39,291 nt of DNA. It comes from a virus. This document shows positions 21,004 to 30,755 of this stretch, piece by piece. Under the pieces are notes generated by a model. The model was not told where the DNA came from, did no database searches, and saw only the letters and a program-made list of their open reading frames with translations. The DNA lies in IMG/VR virus record IMGVR_UViG_3300036851_000097, positions 1-39,291 of that record; one strand, written 5' to 3'. Position 1 is the stretch's first letter. Every line of letters begins with the position of its first letter. Made by a program: the position numbers and the translations under genes.

Positions 21004-21052
21004 ACCCGCACCCATACACCTATCTCCTAGTAGGGATGGGTGACCAGCACCA

Positions 21053-21091
21053 GCCGTCCGGTGAGCGGGGAGTAGGGCGGCACTTTTTTTT
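21053..21091 (+). terminator. Rho-independent terminator
   Basis: GCCGTCC...GGGCGGC stem (7 pairs including one G-U), followed by CAC and then T8 (21084-21091). Confidence 0.6.
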
Positions 21092-21107
21092 AAATAACCA
21101 CAACATT

Positions 21108-21130
21108 TTCGGAACATTCGGAACTAGATT
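21108..21130 (+). promoter_or_regulatory. Tandem TTCGGAAC repeat abutting a TAGATT element
   Basis: TTCGGAAC at 21108-21115 and 21117-21124, directly followed by TAGATT (21125-21130). This is the same -10-like hexamer as the promoters at 19463 and 31859. No -35 element. Confidence 0.3.
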
Positions 21131-21161
21131 TAAACCACAAACCAACCGAGGAGATTTATCA

Positions 21162-21584
21162 ATGACAACCGCAACACTTAACACCGCCGAGGTCGTGGAG
21201 AAGGTTCAGAGGTCGGCAAAGAAGATGCAGGAGATGCGCGAATGCCCTGAAATGAAAGTCGGGCAGTTTGCTCGTCAAGGTGACATCTATATCGAGCGCA
21301 TTTCTTCAATCTCCAAGGAAGGGAAAGAAGTCAAGTCCCACCAGCTCGCCCCCGGAACCTCCAAGGGTTCCCGTCATGTCGTGCAAGCGGAACAAGGCGT
21401 GAAGATTTTTCAATCAGCGCCGAACCTCGGAGCCCGCGCCCTGTTTCAGGTTGGCCCCGCCATCGAAGCCGCTTGCGATTTCGTTATCTCCCACCCCGAA
21501 CACGCCTGGATGAAGATGAAAAAAGGGTTGTACCAAATCTGGTATCAGCTCGATTTCCACCGCAAAGAACGGGTGAAAGATTAG
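21162..21584 (+). CDS. Hypothetical protein
   Basis: I prefer the start at ATG 21162 (MTTATLNTAEV...) with GAGGAG 8 nt upstream. 140 aa. Confidence 0.65.
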   Translation: MTTATLNTAEVVEKVQRSAKKMQEMRECPEMKVGQFARQGDIYIERISSISKEGKEVKSHQLAPGTSKGSRHVVQAEQGVKIFQSAPNLGARALFQVGPAIEAACDFVISHPEHAWMKMKKGLYQIWYQLDFHRKERVKD

Positions 21585-21587
21585 GCC

Positions 21588-23030
21588 ATGAAGATCACCA
21601 CCCTTACCCCGGCGCAAGAAGAGCGCATGAGCGAATACCGCGAGAAATGGTTGGCTATTGGACTCTCTACGGCTCCTACCGATAAGGTGGGGGCAGAGAA
21701 AGCTATGGCCGAAATTTACCGAGCAGCAGGCAAAAAGCCGCCCAAAATGTATTGGTCGGCGTCCCCTTATGTGATGATGATTGTTAGCTCTATTATGACC
21801 AATAAGGCTTTTTTGGAGAACGTAAATGCCGTCCTCAAAGCTAATGGCTTTGATCAGGTCGGGGATCAGGTCTGGGGTCAGGTCTGGGATCAGGTCAGGG
21901 ATCAGGTCGGGGATCAGGTCAGGGATCAGGTCTGGGGTCAGGTCGGGGATCAGGTCAGGGATCAGGTCTGGGGTCAGGTCGGGGATCAGGTCAGGGATCA
22001 GGTCGGGGATCAGGTCAGGGATCAGGTCTGGGGTCAGGTCGGGGATCAGGTCAGGGATCAGGTCAGGGATCAGGTCAGGGATCAGGTCAGGGATCAGGTC
22101 AGGGATCAGGTCAGGGATCAGGTCAGGGATCAGGTCAGGGATCAGGTCGGGGATCAGGTCAGGGGTCAGGTCAGGGATCAGGTCGGGGGTCAGGTCTGGG
22201 GTCAGGTCTGGGATCAGGTCAGGGATCAGGTCAGGGATCAGGTCTGGGGTCAGGTCGGGGATCAGGTCGGGGGTCAGGTCGGGGATCAGGTCGGGGATCA
22301 GGTCTGGGGTCAGGTCGGGGATCAGGTCAGGGATCAGGTCAGGGATCAGGTCGGGGATCAGGTCGGGGGTCAGGTCGGGGATCAGGTCAGGGAAAACATC
22401 TGGAAATCCGGCTTTGGCCAACACGAAGCAGGGTTTTTCTCATACATCGAATATTTTCGAGAGATATGCGGACTTACCGTTGAGTCCGAGAAACTTGTTC
22501 CTCTCATGGAACACGCGAAATGTGCTGGATGGTATCAGCCGTATGAAAATGTTTGCTGGATGTCAGAACGCCCAACGGTTTTGGAGTTAGACGATATGGG
22601 GCAACTACATTGCGAAAATGGCCCTGCGGTAGCCTACTCCGACACCTACGAGATTTATGCCATTCACGGCGTAAGGATTCCGTCGTGGATTATCAACAAC
22701 TCGGAACGCATAAACGCCCGATCCATCGAGGAAGAATCGAACATCGAGATTCGCCGCATCATGATCGAGCGTATGGGCCATGGTGCCTATATGCAGGAGA
22801 CGGGTGCTGAGGTTGTTGACGTTGATTACGTCTCGATTGGCGGCGGTTTAGAAGGGTCTATCATGCGGGCACTTCTCAAGGACAAAAACGGCCTTCAATA
22901 TCTGTGCGCTCACGATGGAAGCACGGATAGGGTCTACTATATGTCGGTTGACCCGAACGTAAAGACATGCTCGGATGCTCACGAATCGGTTTCAGGGTTC
23001 AAGGATTCTCTTTGCGTGGCCCAAGCATGA
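21588..23030 (+). CDS. Repeat-containing protein: N-domain + 45 x (D/G)QV(R/G/W) tetrapeptides + conserved C-terminal domain
   Basis: 480 aa. The C-terminal part (GFGQHEAGFFSYIEYF...RPTVLELDDMGQLHCENGPAVAYSD...IHGVRIPSW) resembles an uncharacterised bacterial/phage family that, as I recall, carries short V-x-D-x-type repeats. Not verified. Confidence 0.8.
   Translation: MKITTLTPAQEERMSEYREKWLAIGLSTAPTDKVGAEKAMAEIYRAAGKKPPKMYWSASPYVMMIVSSIMTNKAFLENVNAVLKANGFDQVGDQVWGQVWDQVRDQVGDQVRDQVWGQVGDQVRDQVWGQVGDQVRDQVGDQVRDQVWGQVGDQVRDQVRDQVRDQVRDQVRDQVRDQVRDQVRDQVGDQVRGQVRDQVGGQVWGQVWDQVRDQVRDQVWGQVGDQVGGQVGDQVGDQVWGQVGDQVRDQVRDQVGDQVGGQVGDQVRENIWKSGFGQHEAGFFSYIEYFREICGLTVESEKLVPLMEHAKCAGWYQPYENVCWMSERPTVLELDDMGQLHCENGPAVAYSDTYEIYAIHGVRIPSWIINNSERINARSIEEESNIEIRRIMIERMGHGAYMQETGAEVVDVDYVSIGGGLEGSIMRALLKDKNGLQYLCAHDGSTDRVYYMSVDPNVKTCSDAHESVSGFKDSLCVAQA
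21852..22391 (+). repeat. 45 tandem copies of the 12-bp unit G[A/G]TCAGGTC[G/T/A]GG
   Basis: 540 bp and in frame. Only unit positions 2 and 10 vary. A degenerate 46th unit (gaaaacatctgg) follows. Confidence 0.98.
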
Positions 23031-27182: not shown

Positions 27183-28088
27183 TTGTCGCGGTTGGCGTTG
27201 CGTCACATCCTCAACAGGGGTGGGTTCGGATTATTTGTGGAGGATTCTTTGCGTGAGCTACACCTTTTTGCAGGAGCAGGGGGGGGTATCCTCGGTGGAA
27301 TCCTTCTCGGACATACCCCCGTCTGTGCTGTCGAGATTGAACCTTACCCAAGAAAAGTCTTACTCCAAAGACAGCGAGACGGGATATTTCCAAAGTTCCC
27401 AATTTGGGATGACATCAGAACCTTTGACGGAAACCCATGGCGAGGGCTCGTCGATGTTGTTTGCGGAGGGTTCCCATGCCAGGATATTAGCGCAGCAGGA
27501 AAGGGCGCGGGAATCACGGGAGAAAGATCAGGACTTTGGGCCGAGATGGCGCGGATCATTCGCGAGATTCAACCCCAATTCGCATTTGTGGAAAACTCCC
27601 CAATACTCACTTCTCGGGGGCTTGGCGTCGTTCTCGGAGACTTGGCCAGAATGGGGTATGATGCAAGATGGGGAGTGCTTTCATGCGCCGATGTTGGCGG
27701 TGTTCACTTACGAAAACGAATCTGGATTAAAGCTGCCAACGCCGAGAAGTTGTACAGCTATGGGGGCAAGAATAACCGAAAACACGGCTCAACAGAAATT
27801 TCCAAACCTAGAGACGATTTTAGCGCGTCTCGTTCTTCCCACCATTGGGAAGAACGAGAACAAGGGAAGTTCCAAAAAAAGATATATCGGTTCAAAAGAT
27901 TTCCGTGGGGCGAAGATGTCCGAGGGATTGAGGATTTGCGAGGCCGATCCGATTTACCTGAACCCCTTATTCGCCGAATTGGTCATGATGTGGCCTTTGG
28001 GATGGACAGACTTGCAGTCATTGGAAACGGACAAGTTCCAAGAGTGGTTAAACTTGCATGGGAAACCCTCTCAGAAGGGCTTATCTAA
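27183..28088 (+). CDS. DNA (cytosine-5) methyltransferase, main frame (motifs I, IV, VI, VIII, X)
   Basis: LHLFAGAGGG (I), GGFPCQDIS (IV), FAFVENSP (VI), HLRKRIWI (VIII), IGNGQVPRV (X). There is no ATG start: the candidates are TTG 27183 or GTG 27237. No recognisable motif IX in this frame. Confidence 0.85.
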   Translation: MSRLALRHILNRGGFGLFVEDSLRELHLFAGAGGGILGGILLGHTPVCAVEIEPYPRKVLLQRQRDGIFPKFPIWDDIRTFDGNPWRGLVDVVCGGFPCQDISAAGKGAGITGERSGLWAEMARIIREIQPQFAFVENSPILTSRGLGVVLGDLARMGYDARWGVLSCADVGGVHLRKRIWIKAANAEKLYSYGGKNNRKHGSTEISKPRDDFSASRSSHHWEEREQGKFQKKIYRFKRFPWGEDVRGIEDLRGRSDLPEPLIRRIGHDVAFGMDRLAVIGNGQVPRVVKLAWETLSEGLI

Positions 28089-28095
28089 TGGCTAG
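27220..28095 (+). CDS. Overprinted +1-frame ORF inside the C5-MTase gene (TRD/motif IX-like content)
   Basis: Open for 291 codons. It contains KLPTPRS, LPTIGKNENKG and LNPLFAELVMMWPLGWTDL. In-frame ATGs lie at 27409 and 27916 (the latter gives a 59-aa peptide). Expression is unproven. Confidence 0.4.
   Translation: MGSDYLWRILCVSYTFLQEQGGVSSVESFSDIPPSVLSRLNLTQEKSYSKDSETGYFQSSQFGMTSEPLTETHGEGSSMLFAEGSHARILAQQERARESREKDQDFGPRWRGSFARFNPNSHLWKTPQYSLLGGLASFSETWPEWGMMQDGECFHAPMLAVFTYENESGLKLPTPRSCTAMGARITENTAQQKFPNLETILARLVLPTIGKNENKGSSKKRYIGSKDFRGAKMSEGLRICEADPIYLNPLFAELVMMWPLGWTDLQSLETDKFQEWLNLHGKPSQKGLSNG
27279..27286 (+). repeat. G8 homopolymer in C5-MTase motif I
   Basis: gca gga gca ggg ggg ggt. 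Loss of one G would move frame 0 into the open +1 frame. Confidence 0.95.
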
Positions 28096-29086
28096 GATTC
28101 GAAACATCAAGCCCGAGTTTTTCCGTCACGAAGAATTACAGTCGTTCGGTGCATTACCAATGCTGGTATTTACTGGATTATGGTGCCAAGCTGATCGGGA
28201 AGGGCGCTTTAACTGGAAACCAAAAACTCTGAAACTGGACATCTTGCCATTTATTGAATTCAATATGGGAGAAGTTTTAGACCAACTTCTGTCTATTGAT
28301 CTAATCCGTAAATATTCAGTCTCAGGGGCAGATTATGGCCTAATAAAAAATTGGTCTAGGCATCAATTACCGGGAAGGGATGAACCACCTAGCGAAATAC
28401 CTGCCTTAGATGGGGTGTTAACGGACTATGATAGACCCCCTAACGCCACAATTAGAGCCAAAATTTATGAGCGTGATGGTTATTCATGCTCTTATTGTAA
28501 AATAGACCTTAGAAACAGTATCCGGTCACGCTGCATAGATCATGTTATTCCCTATGCAAAGGGTGGGAAAAACACGGAAAAAAATCTTGTAACTTCATGC
28601 AAACAATGCAATTACAAAAAGGGAAACAAAACTCCTTTGGAAGCAAAAATGCCTTGGCCAGATGGTTTTGGAGAACAGTATGTTAACGGGGTGTTAACGG
28701 TTACATTAACAGACCTTCAACCAAACCGTGACAAGGAAAGGGAAAAGGGAATTGAAAATGGAGTTAGGATAAAGGATAAGGCCGAAATCGGACCATGGTT
28801 TTCAGACCCTCTCTTTTCCGAGGCTTGGAGCGAGTGGACAAAGGCTCGGAAGTCTAAGCCGCCAGAGGCTGCGTACCGGAAGCTGGTGCGAATATCTGGC
28901 TCAGACCTTACCCTCGCGATTAAAATCCTCAATGAATCTGCCGAAAATGGCTGGACGGGGATTTTTCCCCTGAAAGGACAAAATGGAACCCATTTCAAAT
29001 CTCGTGGGCAAAAGCTCGATGATGCAGCCGAATCCCTCCTTAGAGACCTCGGAGGAACGCCGGAAGGCGGTAGAAGTCCAGCTTAG
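28088..29086 (+). CDS. Replication-organiser-like protein with embedded HNH nuclease domain
   Basis: 332 aa from ATG 28088 (TAATG overlap). N-terminal ARIRNIKPEFFRHEEL...GLWCQADREGRF. HNH motif is CSYC...CIDHVIPYAKGGKNTEKNLVTSCKQCNYKKGN. C-terminal FSEAWSEWTKARKSK. Confidence 0.7.
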   Translation: MARIRNIKPEFFRHEELQSFGALPMLVFTGLWCQADREGRFNWKPKTLKLDILPFIEFNMGEVLDQLLSIDLIRKYSVSGADYGLIKNWSRHQLPGRDEPPSEIPALDGVLTDYDRPPNATIRAKIYERDGYSCSYCKIDLRNSIRSRCIDHVIPYAKGGKNTEKNLVTSCKQCNYKKGNKTPLEAKMPWPDGFGEQYVNGVLTVTLTDLQPNRDKEREKGIENGVRIKDKAEIGPWFSDPLFSEAWSEWTKARKSKPPEAAYRKLVRISGSDLTLAIKILNESAENGWTGIFPLKGQNGTHFKSRGQKLDDAAESLLRDLGGTPEGGRSPA

Positions 29087-29614: not shown

Positions 29615-30343
29615 GCCTTCCAACGCCGTATTATTCCGATGATGCTGTGACAATCTATCACGGTGATTGCCGGGAAATCCTGCCATTACTTGCCCCTGTT
29701 GTAGATTTGGTTCTAACTGATCCTCCGTATGGGATTAAAAAAGATGGACAGGCGCAGTCAACAGGGAAGCATGGTGGCCGAAAGGCATATGAATTTAGAG
29801 GGTGGGATAAAGAACGACCATCAAAAGAGACGTTCGACCTTATCCTTTCAGCTGCCGTCCGTCATATAATTTGGGGAGGCAATTATTTCGCGGATTTCTT
29901 GCCAGCTGAAATGAAATGGCTCGTTTGGGATAAAGGGCAACGCATAAATCAATCTGACGGCGAGTTGGCATGGACATCGCTGGGGGGGGGCGTTACGAAT
30001 TATGACGCTTAACCGAGTTGCGCTTATGACGGACGGCGCAGAACACCCAACGCAAAAACCAATGAAACTAATGTCATGGTGCATCCAACTCGCAGGAGAA
30101 ACCAACACCATCCTCGACCCATTCATGGGGTCAGGTACGACTTTAAGAGCAGCAGCCGATCTAGGGCGAAAAGCTATTGGGATCGAGCTGGAAGAGCGGT
30201 ATTGCGAGGTGGCCGCGAAAAGGATGTGCCAGACTGTTTTACCGTTGACAGATAATAATAGCCATGATAGATTTACCATAGGAGGTAATCATGGGTCACA
30301 AACAGACGGAAGAAACGAAGAAAAAAATCTCTTTAGCCAATAA
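29611..30343 (+). pseudogene. Beta-class N6-adenine/N4-cytosine DNA methyltransferase, split by a frameshift at a G9 tract
   Basis: N-terminal half is 29611(TTG)..30012: IYHGDCREIL, TDPPYG, IWGGNYF, WLVWDK. C-terminal half is 30002..30343: HPTQKP, DPFMGSGTT. One fewer G at 29982-29990 gives a continuous ...AWTSLGGALRIMTLNRVALMTDGAEHPTQKP. Confidence 0.85.
29982..29990 (+). repeat. G9 homopolymer at the MTase frameshift point
   Basis: t ggggggggg c. Confidence 0.95.
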
Positions 30344-30755
30344 GGGGAGGGTTAGAAGTCCAGAGGCAACCAAAAAGCACAGCGAAACAAGGAAGCGGCT
30401 TTTTAAAGAGGGGAAAATAAAAATCCCTTGGGCGGCGACAAAAGGGGTGATGACATGGAACAAGAAAGGCGCAGAGTCAACATCGTGGAAGGGTGGCAGA
30501 CAGACCGACAAATGGGGGTATATATGGTTACGAAGGCCCGAACATCCCAACGCGAATTCTACCGGAATGATTGCGGAGCATCGCTTGGTCATGTCGGACA
30601 GCTTGGGGAGGCCACTTCATCCTTGGGAAAACGTACACCATATAAACGCCATAAAAAACGACAACCGTTTGGAAAATCTTGCGATAGTCACAAAAAAGAT
30701 TCATCACGGGGAGATTCTATGCCCACATTGCGACAAGACATTTCTGATACGTTGA
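30291..30755 (+). CDS. HNH homing endonuclease with NUMOD3-like motif
   Basis: 154 aa. GHKQTEETKKKISLANKG (NUMOD3-like). GYIWLRRPEHPNANSTGMIAEHRLVM...ENVHHINAIKNDNRLENL (HNH_3-like). Overlaps the MTase 3' end by 53 nt. Confidence 0.85.
   Translation: MGHKQTEETKKKISLANKGRVRSPEATKKHSETRKRLFKEGKIKIPWAATKGVMTWNKKGAESTSWKGGRQTDKWGYIWLRRPEHPNANSTGMIAEHRLVMSDSLGRPLHPWENVHHINAIKNDNRLENLAIVTKKIHHGEILCPHCDKTFLIR

Follow-up and report, generated by a model that had tools for sequence, protein, structure and literature searches.

Here, we present an analysis of a tandem-repeat array in a viral DNA stretch of 39,291 nucleotides (nt) (IMG/VR record IMGVR_UViG_3300036851_000097, positions 1 to 39,291; hereafter, the window). 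The array consists of 45 units of 12 bp and lies within an open reading frame (ORF) that encodes a protein containing the domain of unknown function DUF6745. Judging from its coding context, the array is translated and forms an insertion of tandem repeats within an accessory protein of a phage early region; although long, it is typical of a large, uncharacterized phage family. The explanation that we favor, and to which we give a somewhat better than even chance, is that the translated array turns over by whole units, projects from the DUF6745 globule, and acts in phage conflict, with its length and pattern tuning the target. The parts of this explanation differ in strength: the evolutionary mechanism, i.e., a slippage-driven array that changes in length, is well supported, while the structural reading, i.e., an array inserted into one fold, is moderately supported by structure predictions.

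Tandem Repeats Finder detected a single array in the whole window, at 21852-22393, with a period of 12, 45.2 copies, and a score of 832. By parsing 21852-22391 into 12-mers, we found that unit positions 1, 3-9, 11, and 12 are constant over all 45 units and that only two positions vary, namely position 2 (A, 34 units; G, 11 units) and position 10 (A, 20 units; G, 16 units; T, 9 units). The encoded units make up residues 89-268 of the 480-amino-acid (aa) protein, whose ATG-initiated ORF spans 21588-23030. They have a fixed Gln-Val core preceded by Asp or Gly (Asp or Ala in other arrays), and the residue composition of the array is Q45 V45 D34 G27 R20 W9. Units 17-24 are eight identical copies of GATCAGGTCAGG (DQVR). 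A previous description of this locus, made without database searches (hereafter, the sequence-only reading), had listed 45 in-frame units encoding (D/G)QV(R/G/W), ten invariant positions out of 12, a run of eight DQVR units, and 34 units containing GATC, and each of these is exact; the remainder of the window contains 90 GATC sites. Its statement that all six frames are free of stops is incorrect: all three plus-strand frames and one minus-strand frame are open, while the remaining two minus-strand frames hold 45 and 20 stops.

The longest exact internal repeat of the array is 95 nt and corresponds to the DQVR run, and the second-longest is 83 nt with an offset of 96 nt. Both repeats directly record duplications, of one unit and of eight units. 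Two further observations concern the array itself. First, residues 153-184, i.e., the DQVR run, give a sub-threshold match to the NCBIfam family GvpQ (gas vesicle protein; 38.6 bits versus a cut-off of 100), and the same run matches several helical Pfam families weakly. Most likely, all of these are low-complexity matches, and the NCBIfam search returned nothing else for the protein. Second, the hypervariable bases at unit positions 2 and 10 sit on either side of a GGG triplet (N-GGG-N) in the window and in most related arrays, with 12-nt and 9-nt units alike, and GGG tracts number 44 on the coding strand of the window array, where the GC skew is +0.47. Arrays without GGG vary at the same codon all the same.

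The array is flanked by two conserved domains. Pfam DUF6745 (PF20530) matches residues 271-463 with 100 bits (cut-off, 27; E=1.4e-28), and a local hidden Markov model (HMM) of the C-domain matches residues 276-478 (E=1e-96); the C-terminal motifs that the sequence-only reading had taken for a conserved domain are those of DUF6745. Residues 2-70 match a local HMM of the N-domain that was built on 114 family members (E=2e-32). Because phrog_31813 matches residues 5-72 as well as 283-464, the full-length architecture of that family is present in the window protein, and the frame of the ORF is the only one that joins both conserved domains. The contig's own JGI gene call (P0001, 22506-23030) comprises only the last 174 aa, begins within DUF6745, and skips the array; a look-up of its product found no record. 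Evidently, automatic gene callers avoid the array, and members of the DUF6745 family are likely under-annotated.

Searching a library of 1.84 billion proteins, we found 7801 representatives of the family at E<=1e-3, and a profile search identified 1097 proteins at E<=1e-10. The homologs have a common architecture, in which an N-domain of ~70 aa (found in 114 of 167 representatives) is followed by short repeats in variable number and then by DUF6745. Among them, the DUF6745 protein of the Microcystis phage Ma-LMM01 is a true homolog with the same N- and C-domains. The window protein thus shares both domains with Pfam DUF6745/PHROG 31813, a family that is itself annotated only as a domain of unknown function, and our literature search found no description of DUF6745 repeat arrays, of variability confined to two positions, or of an adjacent partner gene.

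Using 2.75 units of the DNA repeat as a query, we identified 90 stretches in IMG/VR that carry the 12-nt unit. Where the ORF is not cut by the end of the locus, the N-domain and DUF6745 almost always flank the array in the same frame; many of the related arrays fall at contig or locus ends. A search of IMG/VR for related loci with the C-domain alone gave no match. In loci fetched by means of conserved C-domain peptides, the spacer between the two domains consists almost wholly of tetrapeptide units, as seen in the best 80 of 320 relatives, which were ranked with a repeat-rich query that favors long arrays. Array length in the relatives is commonly 0 to about 60 units (~61 in L131, 59 in L020 and L101) and reaches ~140 in L167. 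In an unbiased sample of 124 representatives, the spacer between the N- and C-domains measures 58 aa at the median and 154 aa at the 95th percentile. With 203 aa, the spacer of the window protein is in the top 1.6% of this sample, arguing that the array is long yet not unique.

Four further observations were made at other loci. (i) Bacterial homologs (from Obscuribacterales, cyanobacterial, and other metagenome-assembled genomes) have a non-repetitive insert of ~170-260 aa at the site of the array; no adjacent partner gene of the type described below was detected at the loci with such inserts (L187, L189, L195, L197-L199, L205, L208, L215, and L216). (ii) In five IMG/VR loci (L036, L061, L064, L075, and L080), a 12-nt array encoding about 9-27 units of [D/G/S/N]QV[W/G/R] lies inside a different protein family, which has an N-terminal region of ~160 aa (CxGVAIFANNKKA..HSD...) and a C-terminal region of ~55 aa (ATSYWAVK..HWFFDFLKLGVMIVF.KGKAKVFGKKGK.LGEYD) and has no match in Pfam. 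(iii) Stand-alone small ORFs made up almost entirely of DQV[R/W/G] repeats are present in L006 and L012 (which are on the same contig), L044, L022, and L034. Several of them lie in tandem in L006 and L012, and in L006 and L044 they adjoin a DUF6745 gene without repeats; in these loci, the array appears as a separate predicted gene product. (iv) In L175/P0029 (a 38.4-kb contig binned as Planctomycetota), the type of array shifts along its length from DQV[W/R/G] to GPS[L/R/Q] and then to SG[A/T]K; this array may be compound or frame-shifted, staying open since the three plus-strand frames lack stops.

Variation within the arrays is confined to two codons. Designating the residues of the tetrapeptide x1 to x4, we found in ~100 arrays that the first base of the x4 codon (NGG, i.e., Gly, Arg, or Trp) is non-consensus in about 45-65% of units and the second base of the x1 codon (GNY, i.e., Asp, Ala, or Gly) in about 15-50%, while the remaining ten positions, among them all three synonymous sites, show variation near 0. 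Gly, Arg, and Trp together account for 89% of the x4 residues. The synonymous sites are uniform inside an array and differ between lineages, with the peptide core SV spelt by six hexamers, AV by five, and QV by three. Together, the variability at two codons, the uniformity within arrays, and the lineage-specific spelling argue for selection at the protein level plus concerted evolution. More specifically, these sequence patterns indicate purifying selection on the peptide core, rapid homogenization of units, and polymorphism maintained at two residues. A subfamily with 9-nt units (L241, L243, L244, and L245) has the unit GCC-NGG-GNC, encoding A[W/R][D/A], and a different N-terminal region. Because this shorter unit also keeps NGG-GNY, the dipeptide encoded by NGG-GNY is the constant element across array types.

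Comparisons of close relatives capture the turnover of units. L004 and L107, which derive from different samples, have no differences in 780 nt of flanking sequence and are one 12-nt unit apart. Similarly, L244 and L245 have no mismatches in 1198 nt and differ by a single 81-nt indel corresponding to nine 9-nt units. L114 and L115, the flanks of which are ~97-99% identical, differ in their arrays at 28 hypervariable positions and by a 24-nt indel. Thus, copy number changes by whole units without breaking the frame, as the sequence-only reading had anticipated, and the length polymorphism that it proposed to look for in related phages exists at the level of the family. That reading had also taken the homogeneity of the array as a sign of very recent or ongoing expansion. 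Ongoing expansion agrees with the internal duplications and the unit indels; simply a very recent origin does not, since the same two-position variability is found in ~100 arrays from divergent lineages, and this recurrence argues for continuing homogenization with maintained polymorphism.

To place the array in the protein, we used AlphaFold2. The model of the window protein, based on 118 aligned sequences, has a mean predicted local distance difference test score (pLDDT) of 80 and a predicted template modeling score (pTM) of 0.63; the N-domain and DUF6745 are above a pLDDT of 90. The array is modeled as two long helices (residues 73-187 and 203-272), separated by a break, at a pLDDT of 44-78, which makes this part of the model unreliable. 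The model of a homolog without repeats, P0009, has a pLDDT of 90.7 and a pTM of 0.81 and forms a single compact globule that includes both the N-domain and DUF6745. Because P0009 is predicted to fold as one globule, the array would be an excursion inserted in a surface loop rather than a tether between independent domains. The sequence-only reading had proposed a length-variable linker between two domains; the variability in length is borne out by the relatives, while the models speak against the linker. In Foldseek searches of BFVD, only the Ma-LMM01 DUF6745 protein and a fragment from an uncultured phage matched at E<=1e-3, and the next match (E 2e-3) was another DUF6745 protein.

The gene has a conserved neighbor. 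Immediately upstream in the window, an ORF matching phrog_27831 (E=8e-9) has a stop codon that ends three bases before the ATG of the DUF6745 gene. Its start is uncertain and likely is at 21252, with 21162 as the alternative, in an open frame of 21036-21584. Clustering of the neighbors of 94 non-redundant viral loci revealed that this partner gene is on the same strand as the DUF6745 gene and abuts or overlaps it, upstream or downstream, in 52 of the 94 loci; no other conserved neighbor family emerged among the clustered neighbors. The partner was also found at 39 of 67 genome loci. One carrier that can be cultivated is the prophage of Paraburkholderia nemoris LMG 31836 (L174), in which an array encoding [A/D]QV[R/W/G] is accompanied by an adjacent partner gene. 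Reciprocally, starting from three partner proteins encoded on long contigs, the DUF6745 protein was encoded by the next gene in all three cases. The phrog_27831 family has at least 7418 members, its consensus, in which four His are conserved, is RQGDV..P..LA.GE.TGH.H...H.EH..I.LPPG.Y.V..QREY.PE..RRVAD, and it has no match in Pfam, NCBIfam, or PDB.

Based on these findings, we suggest the following model. Whole units are gained and lost by replication slippage or unequal recombination, with synonymous sites being kept uniform in each array while the x4 and x1 codons stay polymorphic. The N-domain and DUF6745 are predicted to form one globule, and the 180-residue array would exit and re-enter this globule as a long, probably helical or flexible, projection. 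Under this arrangement, the length of the array and its surface pattern of R/W/G and D/G residues could change without disturbing the globule. By analogy with gp54 of phage Tweety, which serves as the model for this last step and is discussed below, we speculate that the protein, probably together with the His-rich phrog_27831 partner, acts in phage-host or phage-phage conflict and that the length and pattern of the array would adjust the choice of target or the way in which it is bound.

Several points weigh against this model. DUF6745 was mentioned nowhere in the literature that we searched, and PADLOC gave no match for the DUF6745 protein or its neighbors. A profile search of PDB sequences with the protein gave no meaningful match, and Foldseek found no match in PDB at E<=1e-3 for either AlphaFold2 model. 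The structure of the array is predicted at low confidence; moreover, the strict four-residue period does not fit a canonical coiled coil and 15% Gly disfavors a helix, and the array may be disordered. Many homologs, including P0009 and P0015, have no repeats, and the array is thus dispensable for the basic fold. The copy number of 45 rests on one metagenomic assembly. Finally, gp54 has no match in Pfam and no match to our N-domain or DUF6745 HMMs at E<=10, making the analogy organizational only.

The main alternative is that the array is a neutral or selfish low-complexity expansion, i.e., a slippage-prone repeat in a tolerant surface loop that has no function of its own. Homologs without repeats, the span in length from 0 to about 140 units, the unrelated ~200-aa inserts at the same site in bacterial homologs, and the low confidence of AlphaFold2 in the array would all be expected if this were the case. 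However, a mere expansion does not readily account for a peptide pattern that is kept across lineages with different codons, for the restriction of x4 to G/R/W and x1 to D/A/G/S, or for the same two codons being polymorphic in ~100 arrays despite homogenization elsewhere in the unit. Moreover, the array recurs in a second, unrelated family and as stand-alone ORFs, and arrays that break the frame are rare among complete genes. We therefore consider a neutral expansion unlikely.

Less likely still is that the array exists but that its copy number was inflated or collapsed by short-read assembly. The window array comes from one metagenomic contig, a run of identical units (96 nt) and an internal duplication (83 nt) lie within it, and the many related arrays at contig or locus ends fit breaks introduced by assemblers. 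However, the longest exact repeat of 95 nt is below common read and k-mer lengths, so that reads of at least 150 nt could resolve the array; the order of units is aperiodic enough for unique assembly paths; and arrays of 45-61 units are present in many independent assemblies. Assembly error could alter the count of units but not the existence of the array.

We also considered that the array is an element acting at the DNA level, i.e., a cluster of GATC sites for Dam, SeqA, or MboI, an iteron- or centromere-like array, or a G-rich tract that forms structures, and that its coding capacity is incidental. The 34 GATC sites in 540 bp, the invariance of all synonymous sites within the array, the GGG tracts and GC skew, and the position of the hypervariable bases next to GGG in arrays of both unit lengths would fit such an element; there is also a precedent in the iterons of the lambda origin, which are located inside gene O. 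On the other hand, GATC is wholly absent from 50 of 91 related arrays, other lineages encode the same peptides by different DNA units, and arrays free of GGG, e.g., SAV[DRGH] and DAV[RHG], still vary at x4. Furthermore, variation always falls on codon positions 1 and 2, never on 3, and a search of 31 of the window's ORFs against Pfam identified no Dam-type methylase. We rejected iterons of the lambda O type because conservation extends to the peptide but not to the DNA unit. A GATC site results only from the spelling of Asp-Gln as GAT-CAG; given its absence from so many related arrays, GATC is a by-product of codon usage, and the significance that the sequence-only reading attached to the density of Dam-type sites is not supported. 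Overall, we regard an element at the DNA level as very unlikely. Targeted hypermutation by a diversity-generating retroelement (DGR) or another site-directed mutator is the least plausible alternative: variation is indeed limited to two nucleotide positions per unit, and the Tweety study remarks on a likeness to VR2 of the Bordetella DGR phage (PMC2884959), but there is no second copy of the unit that could be a template repeat anywhere in the window, there is no reverse transcriptase among the 31 scanned ORFs, the adenine at unit position 5 never varies, the G/T variants at position 10 are unexplained by A-specific mutagenesis, and the occurrence of linked blocks of several units favors duplication over independent mutation.

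Extending our preferred model of a tunable projection on the DUF6745 globule, we considered that short in-frame [G/R/W]-[D/A/G] (NGG-GNY) arrays are a general, self-diversifying "tunable antenna" module of phages. According to this idea, the module would be present in the DUF6745 proteins of thousands of phages across many bacterial phyla, would be re-used in at least one unrelated family and in stand-alone ORFs, and would form a counter-defense or exclusion cassette with phrog_27831, its specificity being reset by slippage. We put this forward tentatively, as a possibility that we would not yet bet on. If true, the module would be the counterpart of contingency loci at the level of proteins, and the single case of Tweety gp54 would become an instance of a general type. 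Independently of this idea, the arrays display a distinct evolutionary signature, namely two hypervariable bases per unit versus complete synonymous uniformity, and the family offers a defined partner gene and a predicted geometry of insertion. Our findings also bear on annotation, as gene callers mis-annotate DUF6745 genes with arrays and assemblers tend to break at the arrays.

By its gene content, the window is a phage sequence, encoding a P22-like portal, HNH and VRR-NUC nucleases, and a C5 methylase. In two relatives, the DUF6745 gene sits among early or accessory genes, i.e., those for a helix-turn-helix regulator, RusA, DnaB, NinG, methylases, and an integrase. The sequence-only reading credited the phage with two DNA methylases; among the scanned ORFs we found one, a C5-cytosine enzyme at 27183-28085 (PF00145). 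This ORF matches only positions 4-190 of the 324 profile positions, an ORF with an HNH endonuclease domain overlaps its 3' end (region 27183-29086), and a second ORF resembling HNH/NUMOD3 homing endonucleases is at 30291-30755, ~1.2 kb further on; the methylase gene may be interrupted by a mobile endonuclease. No close relative of the window phage was found: a megablast search with the locus identified no match among 50,697 phage records, and exact searches with flanking sequences among metagenome and viral contigs identified no sister phages. The features of the locus are listed in Table 1.

Table 1. Features of the DUF6745 locus in the window and residues of the tetrapeptide unit in the family.
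Feature	Coordinates	Strand	Description	Basis
His-rich partner, ~110 aa	21252..21584	+	phrog_27831 (RQGD..., G.xH, HxEH, ...VxD)	Profile match, adjacency
Complete DUF6745 gene, 480 aa	21588..23030	+	N-domain, 45-unit tetrapeptide array, DUF6745	ORF list, PF20530, phrog_31813
Conserved N-domain, ~70 aa	21591..21797	+	LTxxQE..W..GLST.P.D...AE....Y..AG..PP...W..SP	Local HMM, phrog_31813, AlphaFold2
Tandem array, 45 x 12 bp	21852..22391	+	Unit G[A/G]TCAGGTC[A/G/T]GG = [D/G]-Q-V-[R/G/W]	
DUF6745 domain	22398..23021	+	PF20530	Pfam, local HMM, AlphaFold2
Tetrapeptide position x1			D/A/G/S	
Tetrapeptide position x2			Q/S/N/A	
Tetrapeptide position x3			V/L/I	
Tetrapeptide position x4			Mostly G/R/W	

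Several known systems invite comparison. Pentapeptide-repeat proteins (the A[D/N]LXX beta-solenoids, such as MfpA and Qnr) share a superficial motif with the arrays (ANLx, DNLx, ASVx) and an invariant central hydrophobic residue; however, the period here is four (or three) rather than five, AlphaFold2 predicts helix rather than beta-solenoid, and there is no match to the Pfam pentapeptide families. We therefore rejected a pentapeptide-like beta-solenoid or DNA mimic, which neither the period nor the prediction fits. VR2 in the gene bbp36 of Bordetella phage BPP-1/BMP-1 is an in-frame repeat with 9-20 copies depending on the isolate and lies in a non-essential gene (as cited in PMC2884959). VR2, which we compared by description only, differs in that its element is 24 bp (a 19-bp repeat plus a 5-bp spacer) and the protein is unrelated. 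Like the arrays, the contingency loci of bacteria use slippage-prone repeats to generate rapid, reversible, and heritable variation. In their case, the units are not multiples of three and switch genes on and off, while the 12- and 9-bp units described here keep the frame and change the length and pattern of the product.

The closest parallel is Tweety gp54, the only tunable repeat protein in phage counter-defense that has been studied experimentally. In gp54, unique termini flank 48 units of AA[G/W/Q][S/Y], and the 12-bp unit varies at the first and second positions of two codons but never at a third codon position (PMC2884959). The number of copies is 48 in Tweety gp54, 26 in Che8 gp57, and 15 in PMC gp51, while the related phage Llij lacks the gene (PMC2884959). 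The mutations by which phages escape Phrann gp29/gp30, a prophage defense resembling (p)ppGpp synthetases, lie in gene 54 and alter repeat number alone, which led to the "tunable" model (PMC9262239). The window protein likewise has tens of in-frame 12-bp units between unique ends with invariant third codon positions; copy number differs among close relatives for gp54 and, at the level of the family, for DUF6745 (L004/L107 and L244/L245), no close relative of the window phage having been found; and gene 54 is a non-essential early-region gene of Tweety, while the window gene also is in a phage region of the early or accessory type. The two differ in that gp54 has an N-terminal region of ~140 aa, a C-terminal tail of only ~40 aa, and a different repeat and that no partner of the phrog_27831 type is known for gp54. 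Altogether, the comparison suggests that the window protein resembles gp54 in organization and possibly in function without being a member of the gp54 family. If this analogy holds, the DUF6745 proteins would be a second, unrelated, and far larger class of such proteins, comprising 7801 representative clusters from many phyla.

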